Assembly: GCA_024408235.1 (NCBI GenBank)
Contig: JAKSVF010000001.1
Span: 29,417-93,416, forward strand
Direction of reading: 5' to 3'
Length of the DNA: 64,000 nucleotides
DNA from: Bacilli bacterium
Lineage (GTDB): Bacteria; Bacillota_I; Bacilli_A; RFN20; CAG-826
Positions 3-64,000 of this stretch are shown here, in pieces; position 1 is the first letter of the stretch; every line of letters starts with the position of its first letter. Under the pieces are notes generated by a model. That model did no database searches. It saw only the letters and a program-made list of their open reading frames with translations, and was not told the origin of the DNA. Made by a program: the position numbers and the translations under genes.

Positions 3-3000
3 ATAGCCGACTCTGGAATGGATGCATTTAAGAACGCTAACAAGGATTACATCTACACAGCCAACAAAGATGAACTGAGATATGAAAATAGACAGCTCAT
101 CAGAATTCTTGAAGCTGCAGTCGATCCTGTCTATGGAGTCATCGCTAATGATGGTGCCGTTAAGGAAATCAAGATCTCAGACGTTGACGCTTACTACTTA
201 GTGAACCCTCTCCTCAAGTCATTGGCAGAATCTCACGTCTTTAACTCCTTGTCCGATAAGCAGATTGCGGAAGGTGTTAGTATGACCGCGTTGGAGAAAG
301 AATTCTCATCGCTTTTAGGTTCGGCTTCCCTCTTTGAAAGCAAGACGAATGCAGACAAAGCGGTTTTAAGCGTGACAAAAGGCGTTACATCGTTTGAACA
401 TCGTGCAAATCTTTGGGACGATGAGATTGATCAGGTCACCAATGTCCTTACATCAATCCAGGATTTAGACATCGATCTCAATAATTTCTCGTTCGACAGC
501 ATCTTCCCAGATGGCAAGGATGAAGCGAAGAGACAAAAGCTCGAGAATATGCTTTTGAGCATCAATAACTCTCAGATTCTCCACTCAGTTCTCCCATACC
601 AAATCAATAAATCTGTTGATACCTTGGCGGATAGCCTTGGTTCATCATTCACACTCACGAATGTTAACGCCTACTACACCGGATATGATTCTGATGGTTT
701 AGCAAATAGATATGATGATGCGGAAATCGTTAATTTCTCATATATCATCCAAGATGGCTTAACAATGGGCGAACTTGATATGTCTTCGATGCATGGCGAC
801 CAGATCGATACTGTCATGTCATTGTTGAAGAGAATCGCTTCGAGCAACGTTTTCAACACAATCAAGGAGCCTGCATCAACCTATGAGATGACCGCTTTCG
901 AAAGCTTGTATTATCAGGCTATCGAACAAGCTAATGTTTTCGATGACATCAATCAGTTAAAAGCGTCTATTTTCCACGTAACAAACGGAGCTAGAACTGA
1001 CTTATCCGTCCTTGGTTCGCGCGCAGCTTCTTGGGAAAATGAAATCGATACCCTTCACCAGGTCTTCCTCGACTTTGATGGCCTCGGATTCCAAATTGAT
1101 AATTTCGATTACAATTCTCTCGATGAGTCCAGGGATTCAGAGCTTGCTACATTACTTGATGATGTGGACAAATCAATCACAATGCATTCAATGCTTCCTT
1201 TGAAGATCGAGGCTGCAATTGATGAAGTCGATGATTCGCTAGGAGAAGGTGTTTCTCTTGGAGTTGCTAACACAAGATACAAAGGCACATCTATTTTATC
1301 TTATGGTGATGGTCTTACTGTTGAGGTTCCAAATGCTTATGACGATTACGATGAATGTGAACACATCGCCCGAATCGTAAATAGAGGCTTGCATATGGGC
1401 TCGGTGGATTTAAGCGCCGGATCAACGGATACCAAATTCATCGACTTACTTATTGAGATGGGTCACTCTAACGTATTCAACACCTTGCCTGATAATAATT
1501 ACGGAATTGACCTCACTTCATTAGAAACTGTTTTCTCAACATCGGTTAAAAAATCGGGTATCTATTCTGAGAAGGAAGCTCAGGCATCCGCTTTGCTCGT
1601 TACCAACAAATCCTCGGACCTCGCTTTGAGAGGTGATTTATGGGAAGAGGAACTCGCCTATGTCCGTGCAACAATCAATGCGTTATCGGAAATCGATTTA
1701 GATATCGAGCACTTTGATTTATCAGCTCTTTTCACAGGCGGTCCAGAAGATGAAACGACTAGACAGAAAATGGTCACCCTCCTTAATTCATTAAGCGATT
1801 CTAAGACACTTCATTCTGTTGCCCCTATTAAACTTAGAACAACAATTGACTCCTACAAGAGTTCTTTGGCCGCTGGTCAGGTTTCTTTTGACAACGCAAA
1901 CTACGATTACAACGGCAAAGTGATATATGAGTTCGATGATACCTCATTAGGAAATGTCACATTACCAAACGCCTACGGATACGACGAAAACGAGGCTTTG
2001 TCATACATCATCATGGAGTCTTCAAATCTTCCAGATCAGAATCTTGCTGATTTAACATCCATCGACAGAACTCCATATATATCCCTATTAAAGAGACTTT
2101 CAGCAAGCCACGTTTTCAATACGCTTGAAGAAGGACTTACGCATTCTCCAAATCTCCTAACAGCATTCGAAAACACATATGTAAGCATTCTTGATGAAGG
2201 CAACGTTTATGAGCATTATGCAGAGCAAGAGCTTGAAGTTGATAGAATTGCCACATTTGAAGCAACTAAGGGCGTCTCCAATTTCGACAATATAAAAGCG
2301 ATTTGGGATGATGAACTCGATTTAGTCGAACAGATCATCACCGATTATCAGACATGCGGATTTACAATGACATCCATCAACATTGCAAACCTCTTCCCGG
2401 CATCTGCAACAGAAGAAGAAGCGGAACTCAGCAGAATGAACTTACAGGAATTGATGGATGACGTAAACTCGTCACTCACCCTCCATTCAACCCTCCATCG
2501 CACGGTCAATGAAGCTATTGATAAAGTCAGTGACAAGATGGGTGGAGATTCGATGGACAACGCAAATGTCTACTTCACCGGTTACTCGGTACCTGATAAA
2601 AAGCTTGGTAACTACTACACCGACGAGGAAGTTGAGAAACTCTCCTATATTGTTAAAGGCTGCATGAGAATGCCTGATGTCGACAAGAGCGACATTGGCT
2701 CAATCGATGCATCTAAAGTTACGGATTTGCTTGCTCATTTAGCAACAAGCCAAGTATTCAACTCACTTAAGGATGGAGAGCCATTTACCGCATTTGATAA
2801 CGCCTATGCCACCCTCATGACAACGGATGGCTTAAACGATGTCTATTACCATGCTCCAAACCCGGTTGATAAAGACGCTATTTATTCAACTTCAGCCGAT
2901 AAGGCTAAGGTTGTTGCAAGGTCAACATGGACACCTCTTACTTTATCCATTGATATCGATACATATGATGTTTCAAATATCAACGGTAACACTGGTTCAT

Positions 3001-31656: not shown

Positions 31657-32166
31657 ATGATCACCATTTCTTTATTAGGCTTAGACCAATACGTGGCTGG
31701 CCACTACAGCAAGACGCACACAGAAAATCTCGCTCAGCTTTTCGAAGTTGATGAAGACGCAGTATCTTTCTATGCGCCAAATTCCATCATTATTCACAAT
31801 GGAGTAGAACAGACTTCATGGAACACCGAAGTCAGAGTTCACCTTCCTACAAAGTTCGCACCACTTGAAGAGAAGGTTGCCGATTACCTTATCCAGACCC
31901 TTAAGGAAATCACAATTAACATGAACATAACATTCGAGTATTACGAAGAGGCTAGCCACTACGAATACCAGAATGATGAATACCCTAAGTTCATCAGAGC
32001 CGACAACATCGTCGACATGGATGACCCATACGCAGAAGAAAACGAAGAGGAATACGATGGACCAACTCCAGAGCCTTACCTCGGAAATATATTCGCCGGC
32101 AAAGAGGAAGAGTTAGACGCTAAATATAGCGCTGATGAAGAATACCTCACTGAAGAAGATAAATAA
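31657..32166 (+). CDS. Hypothetical protein with an acidic C-terminus (occupies the usual def/fmt position of this conserved locus)
   Basis: ORF with GAGGA RBS 7 nt upstream. D/E-rich C-terminal 60 aa; no recognisable catalytic motif. Confidence 0.55.
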   Translation: MITISLLGLDQYVAGHYSKTHTENLAQLFEVDEDAVSFYAPNSIIIHNGVEQTSWNTEVRVHLPTKFAPLEEKVADYLIQTLKEITINMNITFEYYEEASHYEYQNDEYPKFIRADNIVDMDDPYAEENEEEYDGPTPEPYLGNIFAGKEEELDAKYSADEEYLTEEDK

Positions 32167-32179
32167 TGGGGAGAATAGT

Positions 32180-33499
32180 ATGCAGACATTAGATATTTGT
32201 GAAGCAGTATTAACAGACGTTCTTGCCAATGACGTCTCATTCGCTGACGCTCTCAAAAAGGTCTTTAAATCAAGCGTTGACCTCCGCCCTCAGAGAAATA
32301 CAGTCGCATCTTTGGTTGGATGTGAACTTCGTCACCATCTTCTCTTCTCTTATCTCTTGAAGCCAATTGAAGTTTTGACTGATGAAGAAAAGAGACTTGT
32401 CTCTTTATGTCTTGCTGAGTATTACTTCTATCAGAGACTCAACAAAGATGAAGTCGATAGCCACCTCCTTGCAAAACTTGGAGAAGAAAAAATTGAACTC
32501 CTCAAACCGTTATTCGATAAATCGGGTAAGCCTGAGGAATACATCCCAGCTGAGATATCAAAATCAAGCAACAAGTACTTATCATTAAGATACAACACCC
32601 CAGAATGGGTTCTTAAGATCATTGAGCATTATGGTTTCGGAACAACGTACAAAGTATTAAGAAAAAATGCTCAGCAGAGAATCTCGACCGTCCGTGTTAG
32701 AGAAGGCTTTGATAAGAATACAATAGATCCTAACGCTTTCAAAGGCTCACCTGTGCCAGGTATTTATTACTATCAGGGCAAGGAATCCCTAAGAAAACTA
32801 GAAGCCGCCAAAGAAGGCAAGATCTTCAATGAAAGACTAGCGACTAAATTTATCTTAGATAAATACAGAGTCAGCGATCCTTCAGAACTTTTCATCTTTG
32901 ATGGAAATGGCGATGGTTCAATCTTCAAAGAAGCAATCGAAACCTACGGCACAAAGATCGGAATGAACTTTGGAGTCTATTCCGAAGACAAGTATGCAGA
33001 TGTCGCTAGAATGATTAGAACCGAAGGCTTAAAGAACATTAACTACTTTGCAGCTGATCCAACATTCCTTGATGCAGCTATCTCTCGCCCACAGGATTTG
33101 GTAATCGTATCGCCTAAATCCACAAACTTTGATTTGATTAGAGAACAGCCAGATTATCTTCTTCACTTCAAGAAGAGCGAAATGGATGAACTCTTTAGAA
33201 AAGAGAAAGAAGCGCTTGAAGGCGTTTCTAAGGTTGTCGCAGATGATGGACTCCTCATCTACATGGTTTACACAATCAGCAAGAAAGAAGGCCACCAGAC
33301 GATCTCCGAATTCTTGCTCAACCACACAGAATTCAAGTTCGTTAAAGAAGAACAGCTCTTCCCTCAGGATGAACTCGACACAGCAATGTACTACGCTGTT
33401 CTCAAAAAAGAAGAGAATGCTATCATTCTTGATAACCCAGCATCATTGGCTAACCCATTAGAGGGAACGGCCTTCGCTATGTCAGCAAAGGAAAGATAG
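32180..33499 (+). CDS. Sun/RsmB-family protein (NusB-like N-domain plus Rossmann-fold MTase domain), predicted to be catalytically inactive
   Basis: Domain order and conserved context (priA...sun-rlmN-stp-stk). Aligns to the RsmB C-terminus, but the SAM motif DxCAAPGGKT reads FDGNGDGSIF, the PC motif reads SPKS, and the TC catalytic Cys reads VYTISK. Confidence 0.6.
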   Translation: MQTLDICEAVLTDVLANDVSFADALKKVFKSSVDLRPQRNTVASLVGCELRHHLLFSYLLKPIEVLTDEEKRLVSLCLAEYYFYQRLNKDEVDSHLLAKLGEEKIELLKPLFDKSGKPEEYIPAEISKSSNKYLSLRYNTPEWVLKIIEHYGFGTTYKVLRKNAQQRISTVRVREGFDKNTIDPNAFKGSPVPGIYYYQGKESLRKLEAAKEGKIFNERLATKFILDKYRVSDPSELFIFDGNGDGSIFKEAIETYGTKIGMNFGVYSEDKYADVARMIRTEGLKNINYFAADPTFLDAAISRPQDLVIVSPKSTNFDLIREQPDYLLHFKKSEMDELFRKEKEALEGVSKVVADDGLLIYMVYTISKKEGHQTISEFLLNHTEFKFVKEEQLFPQDELDTAMYYAVLKKEENAIILDNPASLANPLEGTAFAMSAKER

Positions 33500-52337: not shown

Positions 52338-52344
52338 ACAATTA

Positions 52345-52368
52345 AGGGGTTCGCCCCTTTTTCTTTTG
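52345..52368 (+). terminator. Rho-independent terminator
   Basis: AAGGGG-TTCG-CCCCTT stem with a UUCG tetraloop, followed by TTTCTTTTG. Confidence 0.7.
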
Positions 52369-52413: not shown

Positions 52414-52430
52414 AATGAAAATTTTTCATT
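52414..52430. promoter_or_regulatory. 17-bp palindrome AATGAAAATTTTTCATT overlapping a candidate -35 region (TTGCAC-17-TAAGAT); it is one of three ATGAAAAT direct repeats upstream of the LacI-family gene
   Basis: Exact symmetry around a central T. ATGAAAA(T) copies at about 52397, 52416 and 52437. Confidence 0.35.
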
Positions 52431-52482: not shown

Positions 52483-53484
52483 ATGGAGAATTTAAAAGAA
52501 CGTGTAACGATTTACCAGGTTGCTCAAGCTGCAGGAGTATCTTTAGCAACAGTATCTCGCGTTATTAACAAGCAGGGCAACGTAACTGAAGCTACGAGAA
52601 CGAAGGTTGAGGAGACAATCAAGCGTTTAGGATATAAGCCTTCAGGCTTAGCTCAGGCTCTTGCTACAAACAGAACAACAAACATCGGTATCGTCATTCC
52701 TAGCGCTAACTATGTTTATATCTCAAGCATGTTGAGCGGTGTCTCTGAGGTCGCTAAGGAAAAAGGGTTTGTTCTTACATTATTTACAACAGGTCATTCA
52801 AGAGAAGATGCAATTGCGATGATTGAAAAGGTCATCGTCTCACACGTAGACGGAGCAATTATCTTTGATGATGAACTTGATGAGGCAGATATCGAGAAGA
52901 TTAACTCCTATTCCGTCCCAACAATCGTTATCAATAAGAAAGTTGTTGGCGAAAGAACAGGATGCGTTAACTTCTCATATACGAACGCGCTCGCGAAGCT
53001 TGTTCAGTCATACTACGAAAACGGTGGCGACACTGAGATGACTTTCATCCATCTTCATAACTGTGGTAGATTGTTGAGCCACTGCGAAAGAAGATTCATT
53101 GCAGCTCACCAGGAAATCGGAAAGCCATATCACATCATGAATGTCGATGACTCTTACACAAGAACGTACCGTGATTTCACCAATTATTTCCAGAATCATA
53201 AAAAAGGCTATTACATCGCTTACCGCGACTCAATTGCAGCAGCCGTTGCAAATGCAGCAACCGATAGTGGACTAAGAATTCCAGAAGACATTCAGGTCGT
53301 TTCACTTGTCGGAACAAAATATGCGCATATCTTGAGACCTACATTAACATCAATCGATTTGGATTGGCAGGAAGTTGGCAAGAGATCGATGTACATGTTA
53401 ATTGATTTGATCAACAGAAACCTTGAAGAAAAGTCTTACAAGTTTGATGCAAATCTCGTCATCAGAAACTCAACAAAACACTAA
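52483..53484 (+). CDS. LacI/GalR-family transcriptional regulator (CcpA-like N-terminus)
   Basis: HTH VTIYQVAQAAGVSLATVSRVIN and a periplasmic-binding-protein-like effector domain, 333 aa. Confidence 0.85.
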   Translation: MENLKERVTIYQVAQAAGVSLATVSRVINKQGNVTEATRTKVEETIKRLGYKPSGLAQALATNRTTNIGIVIPSANYVYISSMLSGVSEVAKEKGFVLTLFTTGHSREDAIAMIEKVIVSHVDGAIIFDDELDEADIEKINSYSVPTIVINKKVVGERTGCVNFSYTNALAKLVQSYYENGGDTEMTFIHLHNCGRLLSHCERRFIAAHQEIGKPYHIMNVDDSYTRTYRDFTNYFQNHKKGYYIAYRDSIAAAVANAATDSGLRIPEDIQVVSLVGTKYAHILRPTLTSIDLDWQEVGKRSMYMLIDLINRNLEEKSYKFDANLVIRNSTKH

Positions 53485-53492
53485 CACGAATT

Positions 53493-53518
53493 GACGCGCC
53501 TAACCGACGCGTTTTTCT
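53493..53518 (+). terminator. Weak intrinsic terminator after the LacI gene
   Basis: ACGCG-(9-nt loop)-CGCGT stem followed by TTTTTCTTTT. Confidence 0.4.
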
Positions 53519-53612
53519 TTTATTTATAAACCTTTGATATTTATATCGCGTAAGTCTAGAATAATAATTAATTAAGCAACTTAACCAATAAATCTAATTA
53601 GGAGGATTTTTT

Positions 53613-55133
53613 ATGGCTGAGCAAACAAAAACAGCGAAGACATCCGGAATCGGGATGAAAGACAAGCTTGGATACGCTTTCGGAGATGTTGGCTCCTTGA
53701 TGGTATTCGGACTTGTTAACACCTTCCTTCAAGTCTTCTACACCGAAACACTCGGTATAACACCAATCTTGGTCATGATTATCATGATCATCGCTCGTGT
53801 ATGGGACGCGATCAACGACCCTCTATGGGGAAGAATCGTCGACAAGGCGCCATGCAAGAGACCTGGAACAAGATATAAGAGATGGCTTGTTTATTTAGCC
53901 CTCCCTCTTGCTTTATCTTCCATCATCATGTTCTTGAATGTGAGAGGCATCTTTGGAGATAACCCTGCACTCACAGTAACATACGCAACCATTTCTTACA
54001 TTCTCTTCGGCATGCTATATACCGGAACAAATATTCCTTATGGCTCAATGGCTTCAGTCATTACAACAGATGATAAGGAAAGAAACGCATTATCAGTCTT
54101 CCGTTCGGTCGGTTCAACTCTCGGCGGATTTGGCCCTATGGCTTTAAGCTTTGTCTCATATGATAAGGTCCAGAAAGTCGTCGAAGGAGTGGCACAGTTC
54201 GATACTGATGGAAATCCAGTCATGGTATCTCAGTTAAATCCAACAAAACTCATCATTGGCGTTGCAATCTTAGCAGTGCTCTGCGTCGTATTCTCAATTC
54301 TCTGCGCAAAGTTCTCAACGGAGCGTGTTGTTACAGAACCATCTAGAGGAGAAACCAAGAAGAAAGGTGAAACCGCTAGAGTTCTCAAGAATCTTCTCAA
54401 GACCCGCTCATTTGTTGTCATCTCAATTGTCGGCATGCTTTTCTTAGCCGCTCAGATGTTCCAGACAACATACAACTCATACGTATTCATGAAATTCTTC
54501 GGCAGTGGTGGTCTTGCTGCTGTTACTCAGGTATGCCAGTACCTTCCAGTAGCAGTCGTCATGTTCCTTGCCGGGAAACTCGTCAAGAAATTTGGCCGTA
54601 AAGAAATCTGCGCTATCGGACTCTTATTTGTCGCTATCTCATTTGGTGTCTTAGCGATCATCCCAACTACAGTCGTTTCAAGAACAATCTTGATGTATCT
54701 CTTCTTCGTGTTCTCACTCTTAGGAGGTATTGGTAACTCCTTTATCTTCTTAATGATATGGGCTCTTGCTAATGACGCGATTGATGATTATTTCATCAAG
54801 TACAGAAGCCATGATGAAGGTACAGCATATTCAATCTTCTCTTTCATGAGAAAACTTGGCCAGACAATCGCAGCTATCATTGTCAACATCTCTCTTATCG
54901 CAATCGGATACGGAGCTGATGGAACAACCAACTTTGCTCCATCTGAAGCTCAGGCTACATCGATGTACTATCAGTCAATCATCATCCCTGCGGTTTTATC
55001 CCTTGCAATGTTCCTCTTACTCATGTTCCTATACCCTCTTGGAAAACAGGCTGTCTTAGACATGCAGGAGAAGAAGAACGCTATTTATGCGGAAGAAGCT
55101 TCAAATGTCGAAAATGAAGCCGTTAGCGAATAA
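53613..55133 (+). CDS. GPH-family (glycoside-pentoside-hexuronide:cation) symporter, MelB/YihO-like
   Basis: 12-TM MFS fold and an N-terminal GPH signature (LGYAFGDVGS...RVWDAINDPLWGRIVDK). GGAGG RBS. Confidence 0.8.
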   Translation: MAEQTKTAKTSGIGMKDKLGYAFGDVGSLMVFGLVNTFLQVFYTETLGITPILVMIIMIIARVWDAINDPLWGRIVDKAPCKRPGTRYKRWLVYLALPLALSSIIMFLNVRGIFGDNPALTVTYATISYILFGMLYTGTNIPYGSMASVITTDDKERNALSVFRSVGSTLGGFGPMALSFVSYDKVQKVVEGVAQFDTDGNPVMVSQLNPTKLIIGVAILAVLCVVFSILCAKFSTERVVTEPSRGETKKKGETARVLKNLLKTRSFVVISIVGMLFLAAQMFQTTYNSYVFMKFFGSGGLAAVTQVCQYLPVAVVMFLAGKLVKKFGRKEICAIGLLFVAISFGVLAIIPTTVVSRTILMYLFFVFSLLGGIGNSFIFLMIWALANDAIDDYFIKYRSHDEGTAYSIFSFMRKLGQTIAAIIVNISLIAIGYGADGTTNFAPSEAQATSMYYQSIIIPAVLSLAMFLLLMFLYPLGKQAVLDMQEKKNAIYAEEASNVENEAVSE

Positions 55134-55135
55134 AA

Positions 55136-57097
55136 ATGAATAAGCAGCAGCTTGACTCACTTTTCATTTCCTCAATCGAAGATGGGGGAATGCGCATTTC
55201 TCTAGCCCAGGGTAAAGCTAAATACAAAATGAGTCGTGGTTCATTCACGACAAAAGACCATATATTTGATAAGCACAACCTCAAGTTCGTTAATAAAGAG
55301 GGGGACAACTTCCTCTTTAGCGACGGCAAGGTTAACTGTGTCATGTCCTTAGAAAAAGGAGAGAACATTAAACTCCGTTTTAAGGCTGACCCAAAATACA
55401 ATCGCTTCATTTTGAAGATCCCTGCATTTGAGAATGAACACATATATGGATGCGGTGAGCAGTATACACACCTTGATCTCAAGGGGAATAAAGTTAAAAT
55501 CTGGGTTTCAGAACACCAACAAGTAATGAAGATCGCCAAGAAGTTCTTAAGAGAGAAACTCTTTGGTGTAAATCCTGATTACAAAGCCCCATACAAGGCT
55601 CACCAAACCTATTATTCTTCACCAGGCTTTATGTCCAGTGAAAACTATTTTGTCTACTGCCATGAAGACGCTTATGGACAAATCGATTTTGAAAAGAACG
55701 AGACTCTAATTAAATTCCGTCAAGTTCCTCAATCGATATCCATACTTACAGGGGATAATCCAATCGATCTTGTTAAGAAAATTACAAAGCTCGTTAATAT
55801 CCAGCCTAAGCTTCCTGACTTTGTGGGTGAAGGCGCAATAATTGCCACCCAAGGCGGAAGCGATGTTATGCTTGAGAAATACGAGGCCTTAAAAGCTAAA
55901 GGCGGAAAAGTATCTGCAATCTGGTGTCAGGACTGGTCTGGACAGATAGTTACAGAATTTGGCTCTCAGGTCTATTGGAACTGGGAAGTTGATAACAATC
56001 TCTATCATGATTTGAAGGAGATCATTGTCCGCTTAAATAATGAGGGAGTTAAATTCCTTGGGTACATCAATACATTCCTAAAAGAAGACACCCCTTTATA
56101 TAAATATGCGGTAGAGCACGATTATATCGTCAAGAAAAAAGACGGTACACCTTACCTCATTCAGTCTACAACATTTAACGCTGGAATAGTTGATCTCACT
56201 TTCCCTGAAGCATATGAATGGTATAAGGGAATCATCAAAACAAACATGATAGGACTTGGCTTATCTGGATGGATGGCTGACTTTGGTGAGTATCTTCCAA
56301 CAGACTCAGTTGTCCATGGGGGCGATCCTGAAAAGCTTCATAACAAATGGCCAACGCTTTGGGCTAAATGCAACTATGACGCCATTAAAGAGTGCGACAT
56401 GGAGGGCAAGATATTTATCTTCTCTCGCGCTGCATATGGTCATACAGTTCAGTATACGAACTCAATGTGGAATGGTGATCAGCACGTTGATTACTCCGAT
56501 GAATATGGGCTTGGTTCAGTCATCCCTGCGACATTATCAATGGCATGCAGCGGAGTTGGCGTGAACCACAGTGATATCGGCGGATACACGACGGTACTTC
56601 ACATGAAGAGAGACGCAGAATTATTTAGAAGATGGTCTGAGATGAATATCTTTACGCCAGTCTTCCGTTGTCACGAAGGAAATAGGCCAAAGGTCAACGT
56701 TCAGTTCGACAGCGAAGAAGTGGTTGATGAATTTATAAAGAACAGCGATATATTTGCCGCCTTAAAACCATATAGAGATGACGTTCTTAAGGAATATTAT
56801 GAGGATGGCATCCCTTGCAATAGACCTCTCTTCTTCCATTTTGATGAAGATGAGTGTTATACGAATCAAAGAGAATTCATGTTTGGAAGCGAACTGGTCG
56901 TCGCTCCTGTCATGCGTAAAAACGTCACCAAGTTGAAAGTCTATTTGCCTAAAGGCGAGTGGATTGGTCTATTTGATGGCAAGACCTACGAAAGTGGTCA
57001 CATTGAAGTCGAGGCTCCTTTAGGAACGATTCCTGCCTTCTATTTAAAGGGAAGTGTTCACGAGAATCTCTTTAGAGATCTTATAAAGGAAAAATAA
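55136..57097 (+). CDS. GH31 glycoside hydrolase of the YihQ (sulfoquinovosidase) subfamily; substrate uncertain
   Basis: Recalled YihQ-like segments: IYGCGEQY, AIWCQDWSG, GWMADFGEYLPTD (nucleophile Asp), WPTLWAKCNYDA, WNGDQ (acid/base), HSDIGGYTT, RCHEGNRP. The position recalled as the sulfonate-binding Arg reads Gln (FGSQVYWNW, Q at 55967-55969). Confidence 0.6.
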   Translation: MNKQQLDSLFISSIEDGGMRISLAQGKAKYKMSRGSFTTKDHIFDKHNLKFVNKEGDNFLFSDGKVNCVMSLEKGENIKLRFKADPKYNRFILKIPAFENEHIYGCGEQYTHLDLKGNKVKIWVSEHQQVMKIAKKFLREKLFGVNPDYKAPYKAHQTYYSSPGFMSSENYFVYCHEDAYGQIDFEKNETLIKFRQVPQSISILTGDNPIDLVKKITKLVNIQPKLPDFVGEGAIIATQGGSDVMLEKYEALKAKGGKVSAIWCQDWSGQIVTEFGSQVYWNWEVDNNLYHDLKEIIVRLNNEGVKFLGYINTFLKEDTPLYKYAVEHDYIVKKKDGTPYLIQSTTFNAGIVDLTFPEAYEWYKGIIKTNMIGLGLSGWMADFGEYLPTDSVVHGGDPEKLHNKWPTLWAKCNYDAIKECDMEGKIFIFSRAAYGHTVQYTNSMWNGDQHVDYSDEYGLGSVIPATLSMACSGVGVNHSDIGGYTTVLHMKRDAELFRRWSEMNIFTPVFRCHEGNRPKVNVQFDSEEVVDEFIKNSDIFAALKPYRDDVLKEYYEDGIPCNRPLFFHFDEDECYTNQREFMFGSELVVAPVMRKNVTKLKVYLPKGEWIGLFDGKTYESGHIEVEAPLGTIPAFYLKGSVHENLFRDLIKEK

Positions 57098-57098
57098 A

Positions 57099-57779
57099 AT
57101 GAAATACTATTTAGATTCAGCAAAGATCGATGAGATCGATTATGCATACAAATATTTGAAGATTGATGGAGTTACCACCAACCCTAAACACATCCAGAAC
57201 AGCGGAAAGCCATTTTTAACCGCGATTAAAGACATTGCGAATTGGCTTGAAGAGAACCATCTCCAAGGCAAGGATGTCTTCCCTGTCTCGGTCGAGATTA
57301 ATCCTCATTTGGACAACCATCTTGAGATGATTGAAGAAGCAAAAAAGATAGCGGCTATATCGGAGAACTTTGTCATAAAGATTCCATGCAACGTTGAAGG
57401 TTGTAAAGCTGCAAAGCTTTTGGAAGACCAAGGCATCAGAACAAACGTAACATTGGTCTTCTCTCCATCTCAAGCTATTCAGGCTGGAAGAATCGGTGCT
57501 ATGTTCGTTTCTCCATTCATCGGATGGAAAGAGTCTTCTGGTGACGATGGACTTAACTACTTACATCAGATTTCAAACATCTATAAGGAGAAGAACTATA
57601 AGACAGAAATCATCTGTGCTGCAGTTCGTTCCGGCAAGCAGATTGCTGAATGTACGGAGATGGGCGCTGATATCATCACAGCAGGACTCTCTGTTTATGA
57701 AGATTCGATCACAGATCCATGGACCGATTTAGGCCTTAAGAGATTCTGTGACGCTTGGGATAACACCGAAGGTAACTAA
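57099..57779 (+). CDS. FSA/TalC-type class I aldolase or transaldolase (about 220 aa); candidate 6-deoxy-6-sulfofructose transaldolase
   Basis: GVTTNP motif and a Schiff-base Lys in VIKIP, 226 aa. AAGGA RBS. Confidence 0.6.
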   Translation: MKYYLDSAKIDEIDYAYKYLKIDGVTTNPKHIQNSGKPFLTAIKDIANWLEENHLQGKDVFPVSVEINPHLDNHLEMIEEAKKIAAISENFVIKIPCNVEGCKAAKLLEDQGIRTNVTLVFSPSQAIQAGRIGAMFVSPFIGWKESSGDDGLNYLHQISNIYKEKNYKTEIICAAVRSGKQIAECTEMGADIITAGLSVYEDSITDPWTDLGLKRFCDAWDNTEGN

Positions 57780-57780
57780 G

Positions 57781-58617
57781 ATGAAAGTTGGTTTTATTGG
57801 ACTTGGCATAATGGGAATGCCAATGGCCACTAATGTTTCTAGAAAATACGATTTAATTGGATATGATGTCATAGCAAAGGAAGCGCCTTTTGCTATTGCT
57901 AGTTCCATAAAGGAAGTTGTAGAGAATTGCGATGTAATCATCTCAATGGTCCCAAAAAATGAACATGTGCAGTCCGTGTATAGCGAGGCGATGCCATTTA
58001 TCAGAAAAGGACAGACTTTCATAGAAATGTCTACGATTTCGCCATCAGTATCTTCCAAGATTGCTCAAGAAGTTGAGAGCAAAGGAGCGGATATGCTCGA
58101 TTGCCCAGTCGTAAAGAGTCAACCAGCCGCAATTAGCGGTACACTTGGCATTTATGTTGGTGGAAAGAAGGATGTCTTTGAATCTGTAAAAGATGTGTTG
58201 TCCTGTATGGGATGCAACATCATATACATGGGCGGACACGGTGCCGGATTAACAATGAAGATTCTTCATAATGCGTTGGTCGGCCAGATTCAAAATGGTG
58301 TCAACGAGGTGATGTCTATCGCTTCAAAATTAGGAATCGATTTGAATGATTTTGTAAAAGCCATTTCCTATGGCGGGGGACAAAACTTCTACATGGATGG
58401 CAAGGCTAAGAACATCATCTCTCAGGACTACCCAACAGCGTTCTCTATCGCGAACATGCATAAGGATGCTCATTTAGCAAAAGACTTACTAAAAGAAAAC
58501 GATCTCTCATATCCGGGAATCGAAAACACCGCTCGAATCTATGACGAAGCGATGGAAATGGGTTTAGGACGTGAAGATTTCTCGGCAACGTACAAGGTTG
58601 TCAACGGAGGTAAATAA
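57781..58617 (+). CDS. 3-hydroxyisobutyrate dehydrogenase-family NAD(P)-dependent reductase (YihU-like; candidate sulfolactaldehyde reductase)
   Basis: N-terminal Rossmann VGFIGLGIMGMPMATN plus a 6PGDH-like C-terminal helical domain. The ATG at 57781 follows the TAA of the upstream gene. Confidence 0.7.
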   Translation: MKVGFIGLGIMGMPMATNVSRKYDLIGYDVIAKEAPFAIASSIKEVVENCDVIISMVPKNEHVQSVYSEAMPFIRKGQTFIEMSTISPSVSSKIAQEVESKGADMLDCPVVKSQPAAISGTLGIYVGGKKDVFESVKDVLSCMGCNIIYMGGHGAGLTMKILHNALVGQIQNGVNEVMSIASKLGIDLNDFVKAISYGGGQNFYMDGKAKNIISQDYPTAFSIANMHKDAHLAKDLLKENDLSYPGIENTARIYDEAMEMGLGREDFSATYKVVNGGK

Positions 58618-58619
58618 AT

Positions 58620-59936
58620 ATGAGAAAAGCTAGAATCGGAGTTTGCTGTTTAACAAGAAAAACATATGACTATCAAACGGCATACGCACTATATCAGGAA
58701 AGAACCGCTGAATTAGTAAAGGACACATCTGTTGACTATTGTGTTTATGGCGAAAACGTTATTGAACCGGAAGATGCTGAAAAGGTTATCCACTATTTTG
58801 AACAGCAGGAAATAGACGCTGTCGTCATCGTCTCGGCCACATTCCATCTTGGACATCTCGCTCTCATGATCAACGACGCCTTGAAGAAACCTATCCTCCT
58901 TTGGGGCTTTGATGAACTCCCATATAACGGTGGAAAGATCAGATTGAATGCAGTGTGCGGCGTTAACTTAAATGCTTCTAACCTTTATAAGGCAGGGGTT
59001 GATAATTACTGTGTCACAATCGGCGATACAATCGATGAGAACTGGGTAAAAGCAATCAAAGCTATGGTCGCTATCCACACAACAAAAATTGGAATTGTCG
59101 GTTATCGCGCACAGGGATTCTTCAATGTCGGAGTTGACGAACTTAACCTCTATAAGAACACAGGTTTGCTCGTCAATCATTATGAGATTAGTGACTTATT
59201 CAAAAAACAGGCTGACGATGAAACCGTTGCTCGTGAAATTGAATGCGTAAAGAGAGAGTGGAATGTAGAAGGCATTAATGATAAGCAAGTTGAATTAGTG
59301 GCTAGACTTGTCGCTTCAACTGAGCTTTTCTTAAAAGAAAAAGGAGTCGATGCTCTTGCAATTCGCTGCTGGCCTGAATTCGCTGCAACCTACGGAATCT
59401 CTCCTTGCGCAATGATGTCTATTCTTCAATCCAGAGGAATTCTTTTGGCATGCGAAGGAGATGTTGAAGCCCTTGTTTCGATGATTGCCGTTAAGGCTTT
59501 AGGCGAACCAACACCATTTATGGCGGATTTATCTCAAGTTAACTTTAAAGATAATTACGCTCTTCTCTGGCATTGTGGCGTTGCGCCATGCAATCTTTGG
59601 GACAAGAAGTGCGTAAGATCTCTTGATACATACTTTGCAGGCGGAAAAGGGGTTACCGCAGGATTCGTCCTCAAAGATGGCGACTTCTCAATTTTCCGTA
59701 TCGACACAGCTAGAGGCAAAACAAGAATATTCTATGAAGAAGGCACAGCTGTTCCGATGGAAAAACTCCTCACAGGTACTTTCGCAAAAGTCCATTTCAA
59801 ACACGATGTCAAAGATGTTCTTGATGTTGTAGTTAATACGGGCGTTGCTCATCACGTCGTTATGGGCTATGTCCAATACGAACCGGTCATTAAGATTCTT
59901 GCTAAGTTGACTGGTTGGGAAATCATCAAGTGCTAA
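58620..59936 (+). CDS. L-fucose/L-arabinose isomerase-fold aldose-ketose isomerase (candidate sulfoquinovose isomerase)
   Basis: 438 aa, FucI/AraA-like central and C-terminal regions. GGAGG RBS. Confidence 0.45.
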   Translation: MRKARIGVCCLTRKTYDYQTAYALYQERTAELVKDTSVDYCVYGENVIEPEDAEKVIHYFEQQEIDAVVIVSATFHLGHLALMINDALKKPILLWGFDELPYNGGKIRLNAVCGVNLNASNLYKAGVDNYCVTIGDTIDENWVKAIKAMVAIHTTKIGIVGYRAQGFFNVGVDELNLYKNTGLLVNHYEISDLFKKQADDETVAREIECVKREWNVEGINDKQVELVARLVASTELFLKEKGVDALAIRCWPEFAATYGISPCAMMSILQSRGILLACEGDVEALVSMIAVKALGEPTPFMADLSQVNFKDNYALLWHCGVAPCNLWDKKCVRSLDTYFAGGKGVTAGFVLKDGDFSIFRIDTARGKTRIFYEEGTAVPMEKLLTGTFAKVHFKHDVKDVLDVVVNTGVAHHVVMGYVQYEPVIKILAKLTGWEIIKC

Positions 59937-59954
59937 TTTCATAGGAGAGAGAAC

Positions 59955-60671
59955 GTGCCGGTGTGGTTGAGTAAGGCCCTATTTGTTGTAGTCGTCTTTT
60001 TAACAAACATTATCCAAGCGATAACTGGCTTTGCTGGCACTGTTCTTGCCATGCCTTTTTCCATTCAACTTGTTGGTAAGCCATATGCAAAACCGGTGTT
60101 GAATGCCATAGCATTGCTGGTCTGCATTATTGTTGTAGTACGCAACTTTAAGAAGATTGACTGGAAATGCTTATTAGAGATTATCGTTTTCATGGGTATC
60201 GGTATGGTTGCCGGTTTCTTCCTTGAAAAGTATCTCTACTCGAAATGGTTCCTAAAAATATATGGAATCATTATCGTGTTCATCGCTATTTATTACTTCT
60301 TTGTGGATAATCCAATTAAACTTCCTAAACCCATTGGATGGGTGATCATGTTCCTTGCGGGAATTATCCACATGATATTTGTCTCAGGCGGCCCGCTTCT
60401 AATCATTGCTGCCAAGAATAAAATCAAGGATAAAGAAACCTTCAGAGCGACTTTGTCAATGGTATGGGTGATACTCAACTCATCAATACTCGTCACTGAT
60501 GCGGTAGGCGGGAACTTCTCATTGGATCAACTTTGGATTCTCCTCATTATGATTCCAACAGTCGTTATTTCGATTCTTATCGGGAAGTTTGCCCTTAAGA
60601 AAATGTCTAACAACCTTTTCATGAAATTAACTTGTGTTCTCTTATTTATTTCTGGATTCCTAGTCATATGA
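59955..60671 (+). CDS. TSUP / TauE-SafE family membrane transporter (candidate sulfonate product exporter); GTG start
   Basis: About 238 aa with 7-8 TM segments. The two half-repeats each have a Gly-rich motif: ITGFAGTVLAMPF and FVSGGPLLIIA. GTG at 59955. Confidence 0.6.
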   Translation: MPVWLSKALFVVVVFLTNIIQAITGFAGTVLAMPFSIQLVGKPYAKPVLNAIALLVCIIVVVRNFKKIDWKCLLEIIVFMGIGMVAGFFLEKYLYSKWFLKIYGIIIVFIAIYYFFVDNPIKLPKPIGWVIMFLAGIIHMIFVSGGPLLIIAAKNKIKDKETFRATLSMVWVILNSSILVTDAVGGNFSLDQLWILLIMIPTVVISILIGKFALKKMSNNLFMKLTCVLLFISGFLVI

Positions 60672-61654
60672 TCATAATGAATAACCTCCAAAAATCTATA
60701 ATCAGAATCCTTCAGCAAAAGAAGGAATGCTCAAGAAAAGAGCTCTCTTCTTTGCTGTCGGTTACGCCAGCTGCAATCACCCTTGCAACAGGACCTCTTT
60801 TAGATGGCGGATTCATCGAACAATTGCATGAAGTATCTAGAGAAAAAGCAGGCCGAAAAGAGGTTATGTTATCGGTCAATGCAGATTCATTTTTCGCCAT
60901 TGGAATCGACGTAAATGATGATGGCATTTCACTTGTTAAACTTAATGGTCGTCTTGAAGTTACTCAATTAATTGAGTTATCTACTATTAAAGAACTAATC
61001 GTTGCTTTAGATAGGTTCGATTTATCTCTATGCATCGGCATCTCTATTTCACTTAAATCGTTCTATAGCGTTGAGCATATAAATAACGATGTTCAGACTC
61101 TCCTTAACCATTTAAAAACCATCAACGAAAATGTTACGCTGATCAACAATATTGCTGCCCTTGCTTACGCTTACAAAATGCGTAATCCTCAGGATGAGAG
61201 TTTCGTCGTTATTAAATATGGACCAGGCGTTGGCTCTGCATGTTTTATCAAGAACCATTTGCTCCAGTCTCCTTCAAACCCAACATATGAACTCGGAAAG
61301 GTTTTCCTTAATGATCGCCTGGTTACTATTGAAGAGGCTATCGGATATAAGTCGATCAGCGATTCTAAGCCTGAGGCTCTTGCTCTTTTGAGAACGGATG
61401 AAAACGTTAGAGCGCGAGTGCTGAAAGTTCTCGGCTTTACCATCCATAACGTGAACACTCTTTTGCAATTGGATAAGGTCCTTGTTTCTGGAGACATCTT
61501 CAAAGACGATAGAATCTTCAATGAGCTGTTGGAGAAAATACCAATGACTGATGAGGAGAAGGCAAAAGTAACAAGAATGAGTGACTATGCTGAATTGAAT
61601 AAAGCCAAATCCGCACTGACCGCTCAGTACTTATTCTTTAACGGTGATAAGTAA
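60668..61654 (+). CDS. ROK-family protein with an N-terminal winged-helix region (NagC/XylR-type regulator)
   Basis: N-terminal wHTH-like segment IIRILQQKKECSRKELSSLL and an ASKHA/ROK-like core. It lacks an obvious Zn Cys motif. The start is either the ATGA overlap at 60668 or 60677. Confidence 0.55.
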   Translation: MIIMNNLQKSIIRILQQKKECSRKELSSLLSVTPAAITLATGPLLDGGFIEQLHEVSREKAGRKEVMLSVNADSFFAIGIDVNDDGISLVKLNGRLEVTQLIELSTIKELIVALDRFDLSLCIGISISLKSFYSVEHINNDVQTLLNHLKTINENVTLINNIAALAYAYKMRNPQDESFVVIKYGPGVGSACFIKNHLLQSPSNPTYELGKVFLNDRLVTIEEAIGYKSISDSKPEALALLRTDENVRARVLKVLGFTIHNVNTLLQLDKVLVSGDIFKDDRIFNELLEKIPMTDEEKAKVTRMSDYAELNKAKSALTAQYLFFNGDK

Positions 61655-61684: not shown

Positions 61685-63349
61685 ATGGAACACACTAATT
61701 GGTACAAGGATGCTGTTATCTACCAGATTTATCCACGTTCATTTTGCGACAGGAATGGAGATGGAGTAGGTGATATACCTGGCATTATTTCAAAACTAGA
61801 TTACTTAAAGGACCTCGGAGTGAACTGCGTATGGCTTTCTCCTGTTTACGATTCGCCACAAGAGGACAACGGTTACGATATCGCTAATTACCGTGATATC
61901 TATAAGCCTTTCGGAACTCTTAAGGACTTTACTATGATGCTCGATGAAATGCATAAAAGGGGCATCCGTTTAGTCATGGATTTGGTCGTTAATCACACAT
62001 CCAGCGAACATGAGTGGTTCAAGAGCGCTATTTCGGACAAGAATTCGCCATACCGTGACTATTACATAATCAGAAAAGGTAAAGGCAAAAATGGAAAGAA
62101 GCCACCTAATAACTGGTCCGGATTCTTTGCTGAATCAACTTGGGAAAGGATTGGCGAGAGTGATGAATGGTATTTACATCTCTTCGCAAAAGGCCAGCCT
62201 GACCTCAACTGGGAAAACCCAAAGGTAAGAGAGGAAGTCAAAGATATCTTGAGATATTGGTTAGATATGGGTGTTGATGGCTTTAGATGCGATGTCATAA
62301 CCCTCATTTCCAAGAAACAGGATTTCAAGTCTAGATTCCCGACCCTCGCTTTATGCGGTAAAGACGCTTTTGTAATGGGTCCAAGACTTCATGAATACCT
62401 ACATGACTTATATAAAGACGTCTATGCGAACTATGATTGCATGACAGTCGGAGAAACGGTTCTTTCAAGTCTCGACGATGCCATTAGTCTTGTATCGCCG
62501 GAAAGAGAAGAACTTGATATGGTGTTCAACTTTGACCATACGGATGTCGATAACCATATGGGCGTTAAGTGGCTTTATAGAAAATTCAAACTCACGAACC
62601 TCAAAAAGGCGGTCCGCAAATGGCAAATCGGTTTAAAAGGCAAGGGCTGGAACTCTCTATTCATCGAAAATCATGACCAAAGAAGGTCAGTAGGGCGTTT
62701 CGGAACTGACGACAAGGAATTCCGCGTCATCTCAAGCAAAATGCTCTCAGCGACCTATTTCTTGCTTCAGGGAACGCCATTCATTTACCAGGGTCAAGAA
62801 CTTGGAATGACAAATGGAGATTTCGAATCAATCGATGATGTTGTAGATGTGGAGGCCCATAACGTTTACAAGCTAGGGCAGTCACTCCCAATACTTAAAC
62901 CGTTCCTTAAAAAGACATTAATGTCTTGCAACAGAGATAATGCAAGAACGCCTGTTCAGTGGGATGACTCACGCTATGCAGGATTCTCAGAAGCCAAGCC
63001 TTGGCTAAAGGTGAATAAGAATAAGAGTTTCATCAATGCAGAGGCAGCGATAAAAGATCCTGACTCAACTTACAATTTCTTCAAGAAGATAATTGAATTC
63101 AGAAAAGGAAATGATGTTATTAAAAACGGTGATTACATCGACCTGCTCCCTAGAAACAATTCCGTCTATGCCTATGTTAGAAAACTGGCTGATAAAGAAG
63201 TGGTTGTTATATCTAATTTCACGAATAAGAGACTCTCTTGCAAAATCCTTAAGGATTATAAGAAATACAATATTGTTTTGACAAATTATGTCGAAAAAGA
63301 AGATGATTATCTCAAACCATATGAGACAAGAGTCTTAATTAATTATTAA
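61685..63349 (+). CDS. GH13 alpha-glucosidase (oligo-1,6-glucosidase / trehalose-6-P hydrolase subfamily)
   Basis: YQIYPRSF, VMDLVVNHTS, GVDGFRCDVI, IENHDQRR catalytic-region motifs; 554 aa. Confidence 0.85.
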   Translation: MEHTNWYKDAVIYQIYPRSFCDRNGDGVGDIPGIISKLDYLKDLGVNCVWLSPVYDSPQEDNGYDIANYRDIYKPFGTLKDFTMMLDEMHKRGIRLVMDLVVNHTSSEHEWFKSAISDKNSPYRDYYIIRKGKGKNGKKPPNNWSGFFAESTWERIGESDEWYLHLFAKGQPDLNWENPKVREEVKDILRYWLDMGVDGFRCDVITLISKKQDFKSRFPTLALCGKDAFVMGPRLHEYLHDLYKDVYANYDCMTVGETVLSSLDDAISLVSPEREELDMVFNFDHTDVDNHMGVKWLYRKFKLTNLKKAVRKWQIGLKGKGWNSLFIENHDQRRSVGRFGTDDKEFRVISSKMLSATYFLLQGTPFIYQGQELGMTNGDFESIDDVVDVEAHNVYKLGQSLPILKPFLKKTLMSCNRDNARTPVQWDDSRYAGFSEAKPWLKVNKNKSFINAEAAIKDPDSTYNFFKKIIEFRKGNDVIKNGDYIDLLPRNNSVYAYVRKLADKEVVVISNFTNKRLSCKILKDYKKYNIVLTNYVEKEDDYLKPYETRVLINY

Positions 63350-63372
63350 TGTAGCCAATAGGAGGTACTTTT

Positions 63373-64000
63373 ATGGCATTACATGATACATATGATGGAA
63401 GCTTGGTTCCTAAAAGAACAAAAGGCTTCTACTGCGGTATTGCTCCGTTTAGAGACGCATGCTACACGCTGGTCTCGATGTTCCTTATCGCATTCATCCA
63501 GTACTCTGGCGTTCTTACTAGAGGACTTGGCGCGGGGGCAACTCAGGCCGAGAAGACAGCGATGTTCGTCGCTGCGTATGGCGTTATTTCCGCATTAGTA
63601 ATCGGATATCGAATCTTCGACGCTTTAAATGATCCATTCATGGGCGTCATCATCGAGAAGATTCACTTCAAATCCGGCAAATATAAACCATGGATTCTCC
63701 TTGGCGGCTTAACTAACACAATCGTTGTTCTCGCTCTATTCTGCGGACCAACAATCTTCCCATGGCTTTCAGGCTGGGCATATGTAGCCTGGTTCGCTGT
63801 TTTCTATCTCCTTTGGGGACTGACATTCACAATGAACGACATCGCTTATTGGGGTATGCTTCCATCCCTAACTTCAGAAGAAAAGCAGAGAACACAGATC
63901 ACAACTCTCATGTCCATCTGCTGTTCGCTTGGACAATTCCTTGTAGCAGGACTTGCTCCAATCCTTGCTTCAAGCATGGGCTATGGAATCTATGTTCCGA
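63373..64000 (+). CDS. Second GPH-family symporter, 3'-partial (runs off the window)
   Basis: GGAGG RBS at 63361 and an ATG at 63373. Translation YRIFDALNDPFMGVIIEK... shows the GPH signature. The ORF-track entry 63383..63598 is in another frame and was rejected. Confidence 0.7.
   Translation, partial: MALHDTYDGSLVPKRTKGFYCGIAPFRDACYTLVSMFLIAFIQYSGVLTRGLGAGATQAEKTAMFVAAYGVISALVIGYRIFDALNDPFMGVIIEKIHFKSGKYKPWILLGGLTNTIVVLALFCGPTIFPWLSGWAYVAWFAVFYLLWGLTFTMNDIAYWGMLPSLTSEEKQRTQITTLMSICCSLGQFLVAGLAPILASSMGYGIYVP

Follow-up and report, generated by a model that had tools for sequence, protein, structure and literature searches.

A likely operon for reductive, transaldolase-dependent fermentation of sulfoquinovose, with an unusual GH31 glycosidase, in a Bacilli-class genome

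Gene clusters that contain the reductase SftR and lead to the excretion of 2,3-dihydroxypropanesulfonate (DHPS) have been described in Clostridium symbiosum and Eubacterium rectale (Frommeyer et al. 2020, PMC7491151). Both organisms express their sft genes on sulfoquinovose (SQ) and excrete DHPS (PMC7491151; PMC8397734), and a DHPS-forming pathway is known from pure culture of Enterocloster clostridioformis (PMC12330013). Here we describe a related cluster at positions 52483-61654 of a 64,000-nucleotide stretch of DNA ("the window") from a Bacilli-class metagenome-assembled genome (MAG), contig JAKSVF010000001.1. The genes from 53613 to about 61654, together with the adjacent LacI gene, are likely to form an operon for the reductive fermentation of SQ by the sulfoquinovose transaldolase (sulfo-TAL, or SFT) route. 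Every step of the pathway was assigned by sequence comparison with validated enzymes and from conserved gene context. The reductive end step, which had been put forward as a novelty in the initial annotation of this DNA, is not one, because the pathway has already been published in this form for anaerobes, namely for gut Clostridia (PMC7491151, PMC12330013). The locus would instead add an uncultured Bacilli-class lineage of the gut or rumen to the known range of the reductive transaldolase route.

An open reading frame (ORF) scan of 52483-61654 finds eight tightly packed, co-oriented ORFs, all on the + strand, and their labels agree with the Pfam and NCBIfam results for each cluster protein. 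The initial annotation had listed seven consecutive co-oriented genes; all seven are present at the positions given for them, but the end point of 61654 takes in an eighth, ROK-like gene. The features of the region are as follows.

52344 to 52359, + strand: terminator-like hairpin and T-run, AAGGGGTTCGCCCCTT and TTTCTTTT, closing the upstream gene and forming the 5' boundary of the cluster
52483 to 53484, + strand: LacI-family transcription regulator, 333 aa (Pfam LacI 64.5 bits, Peripla_BP_1/3)
53534 to 53562, + strand: candidate σ70-like promoter, TTGATA-17-TAGAAT, in the gap before the symporter gene (consensus match only)
53613 to 55133, + strand: GPH/MFS_2 cation symporter, 506 aa (TIGR00792 gph 235 bits, cut-off 231; Pfam MFS_2 229.8 bits)
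55136 to 57097, + strand: YihQ-family GH31 glycosidase, 653 aa, NCBI MCQ2796906.1 (NCBIfam PRK10426 698 bits, cut-off 553)
55967 to 55969, + strand: codon for Gln278 of the GH31 protein, at the position of Arg301 of E. coli YihQ by residue mapping
57099 to 57779, + strand: TAL_FSA transaldolase of the SftT/SqvA type, 226 aa (PDB 8BC3 284 bits)
57781 to 58617, + strand: putative NAD(P)H-dependent, SftR-type sulfolactaldehyde reductase of the 3-hydroxyisobutyrate dehydrogenase (HIBADH) family, 278 aa (Pfam NAD_binding_2, NAD_binding_11)
58620 to 59936, + strand: SftI-family isomerase of a divergent "type 2", 438 aa (NCBIfam SftI NF048012)
59955 to 60671, + strand: TauE/TSUP exporter, 238 aa, with a GTG start behind AGGAGAG (Pfam TauE 83.3 bits)
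60668 to 61654, + strand: winged-helix and degenerate ROK-family protein, 328 aa (Pfam ROK 23.7 bits, MarR/HTH_24 N-terminus)

From the symporter gene onward, the intergenic gaps are 1-18 nt or the genes overlap, and so these genes look like one transcription unit; the sole sizeable gap is the 128 nt before the symporter gene.

Identification of the 57099-57779 product as a sulfofructose transaldolase (SF-TAL) is strongly supported by its relationship to two validated enzymes. Among PDB sequences, it scores 284 bits against the SF-TAL of Bacillus megaterium (BmSF-TAL, 8BC3); the highest score for an ordinary transaldolase is 158, and that for E. coli FSA is about 72. For comparison with E. rectale, the sft cluster was recovered from human-gut metagenome contigs, in which the GH31 protein is 100% identical to PDB 6PNR (SftG). 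For the transaldolase of the window, identity is 60.1% with BmSF-TAL and 58.7% with E. rectale SftT; between these two enzymes it is 62.7%. Assignment as an SF-TAL was judged by an Arg-to-Trp signature relative to ordinary transaldolases, in place of named sulfonate-pocket residues. In classical transaldolases, the Arg of an SPFVGR sequence binds phosphate, and the T. maritima and T. acidophilum enzymes read SPFVGR(M/L)DD. The corresponding sequence is SPFIGWKESSGDD in the window and SPFVGWKENSGDD in BmSF-TAL, so that in both proteins (SPF[IV]GW) a Trp replaces the Arg (SPFIGW for SPFVGR). The two proteins also have in common an EINPHLDN insertion, and K94 of the window enzyme aligns with K89 of BmSF-TAL, which is cited as the Schiff-base lysine in PMC12890257.

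Homology of the isomerase to the SftI/SqvD family, which is related to PF02952, appears secure, and from this its activity would be the conversion of SQ to sulfofructose. The sole NCBIfam match is SftI NF048012, over the full length of the protein (E=6e-59; 200 bits, where the equivalog cut-off is 700). Pfam FucI matches fall below threshold (Fucose_iso_C, E=1.6e-4), no FucI or AraA model scores above threshold, and no solved structure matches by sequence. The FucI part of the earlier label "FucI-like isomerase" thus has weak, sub-threshold Pfam matches behind it; the solid match is to SftI. The isomerases of related clusters form two subtypes by their score on the SftI model. Type 1 proteins, in the Butyrivibrio and Acholeplasmatales loci that were scored, reach 371-418 bits (about 418 in Butyrivibrio), and the E. 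rectale isomerase aligns with this type. Type 2 proteins, found in this window, in related Bacilli MAGs, and in Oscillospiraceae-type loci, reach 178-205 bits. Comparison of type 2 with type 1 (E. rectale, Butyrivibrio, and Virgibacillus) by hhalign gives a probability of 100% and E=1e-45 over 432 columns, and the motifs DGGxxRLN, RCWP[ED]F, CE[GA]D, and WHCG are common to both. Type 2 isomerases occur in transaldolase clusters and also in Oscillospiraceae loci with the order GH31-isomerase-DUF4867-Fe-ADH-TauE, a distribution that fits a shared first step from SQ to sulfofructose. Isomerases about 80% identical to that of the window are present in P0123 and about 70 further clusters from ENA metagenome assemblies, one of which has 106 members. 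A close relative carrying the gene cluster seems to be common in some sampled habitat.

The ORF of the reductase begins mechanically at a GTG at 57748; the ATG at 57781, which has the ribosome-binding site GAAGGT upstream, is likely to be the true start. Both Pfam domains of sulfolactaldehyde (SLA) reductases, PF03446 and PF14833, are present. With the E. rectale sft reductase, the protein shares 50.2% identity and the motifs MKI[LC]HNALV and PVVKS.PAA. It is 29% identical to E. coli YihU, scoring 103 bits against YihU versus 149 against a Bacillus HIBADH. At the positions that form the sulfonate pocket of YihU, E. rectale SftR has the same residues as the window reductase, including the same His/Val (MKICHNALV versus MKILHNALV in the window). 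Because of these shared residues and the 50.2% identity, the enzyme is best described as SftR-type rather than YihU-type. Consequently, the earlier designation of a YihU-like HIBADH-family reductase holds for the family but not for the likeness to YihU.

TauE is 44% identical to the TauE (SftE) of the E. rectale cluster and would, in the role of SftE, export DHPS. The GPH symporter is the putative importer of sulfoquinovosyl glycerol (SQGro) or SQ, the role of SftA; the transporter of the E. rectale cluster, which belongs to a different family, gives no tblastn match to it. The sulfo-TAL logic proposed in the initial annotation is upheld by these comparisons, with the transaldolase 60% and 59%, the reductase 50%, and TauE 44% identical to their sulfo-TAL counterparts.

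Also borne out is the earlier statement that the cluster has neither a kinase nor a class II aldolase. In tblastn searches of the 64-kb window (E<=1e-3), there was no match to YihV, a phosphofructokinase-type sulfofructose kinase, YihT, or a class II aldolase, and none to YihS, YihR, or a split transketolase. The ROK-like protein was considered as the missing kinase. The usual ATP-binding motif of ROK proteins is DxGxT; the translation of 60668-61654 reads GIDVNDDG, without the GGT of this motif. The broken ATP motif, the N-terminal winged helix, and the barely detectable ROK domain rule this candidate out, and the protein is probably a regulator instead.

Recurrence of the cluster was assessed in the 80 species-representative genomes with the closest GH31 proteins, counting genes within 10 kb of the GH31 gene. 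An SF-TAL-type gene is present at 57 of these 80 loci; both a transaldolase and a reductase gene are present at 55, and at 50 there is an isomerase gene as well. Transporters 35-49% identical to the GPH symporter are found at 28 of the 80. The full nine-gene order recurs in another MAG (L003) at 62-92% protein identity, and about a dozen other genomes, with identities of about 60%, have the order GH31-TAL-reductase-isomerase-(DUF4867)-TauE-ROK. A sister locus, L005, has DUF4867 between the isomerase and TauE genes. The same gene order recurs across dozens of gut and rumen genomes; the arrangement is not due to chance. Other loci combine a related glycosidase with different downstream genes. 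Three Acholeplasmatales/Tenericutes loci with the window's class of GH31 contain, instead, a split transketolase, RpiB, and a CoA-acylating aldehyde dehydrogenase, together with an ADP-forming CoA ligase, GntR regulators, and a GPH symporter; this is the gene set of the published sulfoacetate-forming sulfo-transketolase (sulfo-TK) variant (PMC12890257). In Virgibacillus, an Arg-type GH31 sits in a sulfo-EMP2 cluster (named for the sulfoglycolytic Embden-Meyerhof-Parnas, or sulfo-EMP, route). The glycosidase is thus the element common to three downstream chemistries, each with SQ as its starting point. Since the GH31 class of the window spans both sulfo-TAL and sulfo-TK contexts, with SQ as their common denominator, sulfoquinovosides are its likeliest substrate.

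Two further observations concern these related loci. Five Erysipelotrichaceae/Solobacterium MAGs (L037, L059, L079, L081, and L078) have a Gln-type GH31, a transporter, an SftR-like reductase, and a type 1 isomerase, with no transaldolase within reach of the GH31 gene; these may use a different cleavage module, perhaps one like that of sulfo-EMP2. In addition, the taxon labels of the "cleanbin" MAGs (L003-L012) look unreliable, as near-identical Bacilli-type clusters appear under Bacteroidales, Alistipes onderdonkii, Roseburia hominis, and Faecalibacillus. The "Faecalibacillus" locus, from the closest MAG, has 41% GC, compared with 29.8% for F. intestinalis. An assignment of the host to the Erysipelotrichia was not adopted, given that the "Faecalibacillus sp." label on this closest MAG is doubtful.

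Taken together, the enzymes suggest the following pathway. The GPH symporter would take up SQGro and/or free SQ, and the GH31 enzyme would carry out retaining hydrolysis of the α-sulfoquinovoside through D382 and D448, probably holding the sulfonate without the usual arginine by means of Gln278, Trp281, Tyr484, and the co-varying Thr345/Thr346. By homology, the SftI-family isomerase would convert SQ to 6-deoxy-6-sulfofructose. The transaldolase, whose assigned reaction is strongly supported by orthology and signature, would form a Schiff base at K94 and transfer the C1-C3 unit onto glyceraldehyde-3-phosphate, yielding fructose-6-phosphate and 3-sulfolactaldehyde. The SftR-type reductase would then reduce sulfolactaldehyde to DHPS, regenerating NAD+, and TauE would export the DHPS. 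The sugar would cost the cell no ATP, and the balance given in the literature is SQ + ADP + Pi -> pyruvate + DHPS + ATP.

The least conventional member of the cluster is the glycosidase. Its membership in the YihQ family is clear from scores: among PDB sequences, it reaches 445-515 bits against five solved sulfoquinovosidases (SQases), including 8R56 (515), E. coli YihQ (501), and E. rectale SftG (489), and at most 133 against other GH31 proteins; on profile models, it reaches 698 bits for YihQ (PRK10426) versus 193 for the α-xylosidase YicI. The nucleophile D382 and the acid/base D448 are kept, as are Q239, Q265, W281, Y484, and H513. Recognition as an SQase was judged by the Arg301-Trp304-Tyr508 triad plus either Gln288 or a Glu270/Lys245 pair. 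R301, W304, and Y508 are the sulfonate-recognition signature of SQases (PMC12780224; PMC8006165), and an Arg is found at 301 in all of the solved, characterized SQases (E. coli, A. tumefaciens, E. rectale, and 8R56). In the window GH31, the triad is incomplete: Trp281, Tyr484, Gln265, and Gln239 are present, and Gln278 occupies the place of Arg301. The initial annotation had called the active site non-canonical, and this is confirmed by Gln278 for Arg301 and by Ile271 for Arg294.

The glutamine is a feature of the clade and not an accident. It is found at position 301 in 120/120 of the closest database homologues, down to 49% identity, and in the GH31 proteins of 80/80 of the closest species-representative genomes. 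Since the residue is invariant and the catalytic residues are intact, the protein appears to be under purifying selection rather than in decay. Gln-type proteins form two groups, one that retains Arg294 (Lachnospiraceae, Oscillospiraceae, and Faecalibacterium-labelled MAGs) and one without it (this window, ruminant "Bacilli" MAGs, and Acholeplasmatales). A rough neighbour-joining tree places the Gln-type sequences that are linked to sulfoglycolysis in a clade beside the Arg-type sulfoquinovosidases. Among 209 YihQ-family sequences, position 301 co-varies most with position 368, as Arg-Gly or Gln-Thr (mutual information 0.62; Q278/T345 in the window), and both the Arg301 and Gln301 states recur in a distant branch of 700-930-aa proteins, which suggests that the 301/368 pairing is an old, recurrent two-residue switch. 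Two regions, the 150-180 loop and the 367-371 segment, are remodelled in the Gln clade by comparison with all of the characterized SQases. Alignment-based searches for a cation that might compensate for the lost Arg301 gave three candidates: a Lys in the remodelled loop, at E. coli position 161/162 or close to it; Lys316 (A339 in E. coli), a residue specific to the subclade of the window; and the 301-368 covariation. A neutral sulfonate pocket has a precedent in YihU, where the sulfonate is bound by Asn, Ser, and an amide of the backbone and not by the side chain of an arginine (PMC8006165). As a separate observation, a second GH31 paralogue lies beside the Gln-type one in some Lachnospiraceae/Butyrivibrio loci (L025 5773-7782 and 9959-11983; L026 7135-9876), and rumen species with two yihQ copies have been noted (PMC13219744).

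Several findings weigh against the reading of the locus as a reductive sulfo-TAL operon. DUF4867/SftX, the usual companion of sulfo-TAL clusters, is absent from the 64-kb window (tblastn with three DUF4867 proteins, E<=1e-3); its function is unknown, and so it is probably dispensable. The isomerase is 25% identical to E. rectale SftI and scores far below the NCBIfam equivalog cut-off. The reductase scores no closer to YihU than to ordinary HIBADH or tartronate-semialdehyde reductases. The sulfonate pocket of YihU consists of Asn174, Ser178, and the backbone of Arg123 (PMC8006165); the window enzyme is without the Asn174/Ser178 pocket, having His/Val there and Lys at position 123. A YihU-type pocket is accordingly not conserved, which is normal for SftR. 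The glycosidase has lost the arginine that binds the sulfonate in E. coli YihQ (Arg301), with Gln278 in its place, and also Arg294, which is Ile271. More distant Gln-type GH31 proteins (700-930 aa) occur outside sulfoglycolysis contexts, so conservation of W304 and Y508 alone is no proof of sulfonate binding. E. coli YihQ and E. rectale SftG have kcat/KM values of about 1e5 M-1 s-1; no assayed Gln-type enzyme was found in the literature searched.

The points on the glycosidase can be accommodated by a genuine sulfo-TAL pathway that is fed by free SQ, in which the GH31 protein is an enzyme for some other α-glycoside or sulfosugar conjugate, or a weak, relaxed enzyme. The loss of both R301 and R294, a remodelled 367-371 segment and 150-180 loop that would fit an altered -1/+1 subsite, the distant Gln-type relatives outside sulfoglycolysis clusters, and the existence of SQ degraders that have no SQase and rely on free SQ (PMC13219744) would all be in keeping with this explanation. 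However, the invariance of Gln301 in 120/120 and 80/80 relatives with intact catalytic residues indicates purifying selection, the gene sits where SftG does in clusters of the E. rectale type, it encodes the only glycosidase associated with both sulfo-TAL and sulfo-TK clusters, and the importer of the cluster is a glycoside-type GPH symporter. We regard this alternative as distinctly unlikely. More improbable still is that the whole cluster serves another 6-substituted or 6-deoxy hexose through the same isomerase/transaldolase/reductase logic, for example α-glucuronides via fructuronate, tartronate semialdehyde, and glycerate, or quinovose via lactaldehyde to propanediol. A related pathway of this kind had been raised in the initial annotation, and it draws on a reductase that scores as well on tartronate-semialdehyde reductase/HIBADH models as on that for SLA reductase, on a GH31 without arginine at the sulfonate site, and on a divergent isomerase. 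It would, however, have to explain a transaldolase that has 59-60% identity and the Arg-to-Trp signature in common with two validated sulfofructose transaldolases from E. rectale and Bacillus, a reductase and an exporter with orthologues in the E. rectale cluster, which produces DHPS, a TauE exporter of the sulfonate/sulfite type that would be pointless for glycerate or propanediol, and the presence of the same GH31 class with sulfoacetate-forming sulfo-TK genes.

An ordinary sugar cluster of FucI, Fsa, and a generic α-glucosidase is what the public annotation implies, since the NCBI names are "alpha-glucosidase", "transaldolase", and "fucose isomerase" and the Pfam matches are generic. This is hardly credible, as it is contradicted by the score gaps in favour of sulfo-specific relatives: 284 bits to SF-TAL versus about 72 to E. 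coli FSA for the transaldolase, 698 bits on the YihQ model versus 193 on YicI for the GH31, and an isomerase that rises above no FucI or AraA threshold. The profile comparison with characterized enzymes that had been proposed at the outset places the transaldolase and the GH31 protein, and more distantly the isomerase, with their sulfosugar relatives, and not with FucI, Fsa, or α-xylosidase.

With the locus read as a sulfo-TAL operon for SQ, the Gln278/Thr345 GH31 and the type 2 isomerase could represent a distinct specificity class rather than drifted copies of SftG and SftI. In a milder version, the GH31 could be a sulfoquinovosidase whose sulfonate pocket is neutral and has no arginine. A more radical version, in which the enzyme acts on some natural conjugate of a sulfosugar that is neither SQGro nor sulfoquinovosyl diacylglycerol (SQDG) and its product is still channelled into sulfofructose, is conceivable but on the whole unlikely. 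In the rumen, 47-64% of yihQ amplicon variants fall on a long branch with the YihQ of Acholeplasmatales (Mariniplasma) (PMC13219744), and this branch may be the Gln clade, that is, much of the rumen "yihQ" diversity; if so, either version changes how SQ-degrading potential is counted. Some 200 close GH31 relatives, mostly from gut and rumen genomes, are without the diagnostic Arg, and motif-based screens would consequently under-count SQ degraders. Alternatively, if the Gln-type GH31 proteins are not sulfoquinovosidases, yihQ-based surveys over-count them. The public names quoted above imply that annotation pipelines miss the pathway, the product of which is of wider importance: fermentation of the plant sulfo-sugar SQ to DHPS feeds hydrogen-sulfide-producing bacteria in guts.

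Control of the cluster may involve two proteins, LacI and the ROK-like protein, which are candidate regulators. The closest NCBIfam models to the LacI protein are CcpA and RbsR, with scores far below their cut-offs, and the pairing of the LacI gene with the cluster is confined to this window and L003; a homologue lies beside 1/80 related loci. The ROK-like gene is translationally coupled to TauE, its ATG overlapping the TauE stop codon. ROK-family genes are found 3' of the cluster in 25/80 related loci and also in E. rectale-type loci. Promoter-like matches in the region, such as the candidate before the symporter gene, are no more numerous than in shuffled sequence, and the symporter promoter region has no convincing LacI operator. 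At 52417-52429, about 55 nt 5' of the LacI start, there is a perfect 13-nt palindrome, TGAAAATTTTTCA, that resembles LacI/CcpA-type half-sites and could be an autoregulatory LacI operator; nothing comparable is found before the symporter gene.

The surroundings of the cluster are those of an ordinary chromosome. The cluster has a GC content of 0.41-0.43, matching that of the window, and the remainder of the window encodes AddAB, ATP synthase, PriA, glycogen synthase, LeuRS, and GDH. No RNA element turned up when the window was scanned with Rfam and for tRNAs. Directly 3' of the ROK-like gene, with no terminator between, three genes occupy 61685-64000 and continue in L001 (16144-21380). The first encodes a 554-aa GH13 protein like TreC/oligo-1,6-glucosidase (TIGR02403 643 bits, cut-off 799), which is syntenic in L003; the second, another GPH symporter, MelB-like and 533 aa long; and the third, a 648-aa protein with a weak match to a β-L-arabinopyranosidase model. 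The transcription unit may run on into the GH13 gene and the second GPH gene. These three genes may also constitute a second glycoside-utilization module, which may be what the ROK-like regulator really controls. Elsewhere in the window, a 1698-aa ORF (18-5114) and a 454-aa ORF (32135-33499) match no Pfam family at E<=1e-6.

As judged from its sequence, the cluster is intact, conserved, and chromosomal, with several variant features: no SftX, a type 2 isomerase, a GPH importer, a LacI regulator, and a Gln-type GH31. Most of these features are common to many unannotated MAG loci. The closest known systems are those of E. rectale/Agathobacter rectalis (SftA, G, X, T, R, E, and I), C. (Otoolea) symbiosum, and E. 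clostridioformis, which have the same enzyme logic and DHPS as the end product. The window has in common with E. rectale the SF-TAL signature, the reductase motif, a YihQ-family GH31, and a nearby ROK-family gene. However, its GH31 is 38% identical to SftG, with Gln278 in place of the Arg of SftG; its isomerase is of the other subtype (25% identity); SftX, present in E. rectale, is lacking; its GPH importer is of a different family and is accompanied by a LacI regulator; and its host is a Bacilli-class MAG rather than a member of the Lachnospiraceae. The sulfo-TAL clusters of Bacillus aryabhattai SOS1 and B. megaterium DSM 1804 (SftT/SqvA, SftI/SqvD, and SftD/SlaB) likewise have an SF-TAL, an SftI-family isomerase, a GH31, and TauE. 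In Bacillus, an aldehyde dehydrogenase oxidizes sulfolactaldehyde to sulfolactate, whereas the window has a reductase, and a GntR regulator and DUF4867 are present (PMC7491151).

A further related system is E. coli's sulfo-EMP pathway (yihO-W), which resembles the window in its GH31 SQase family, its reductive DHPS step by a HIBADH-family enzyme, and its GPH-type transporter. It differs in its use of the YihS isomerase, which has a different fold, the YihV kinase, and the YihT aldolase, none of which has a homologue in the window. Finally, the sulfo-TK loci of Acholeplasma/Tenericutes (SqwGH, SqwI, SqwD, and SqwKL; Chu et al. 2023, as cited in PMC12890257) contain GH31 proteins that have Gln301, are without Arg294, and are 44-49% identical to that of the window, with a GPH symporter gene directly upstream of the GH31 gene, as in the window. 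In these loci, C-C cleavage is by a transketolase and the product is sulfoacetate, with neither a transaldolase nor a reductase; in this the window differs, as it pairs the same class of glycosidase with the transaldolase and the reductase.

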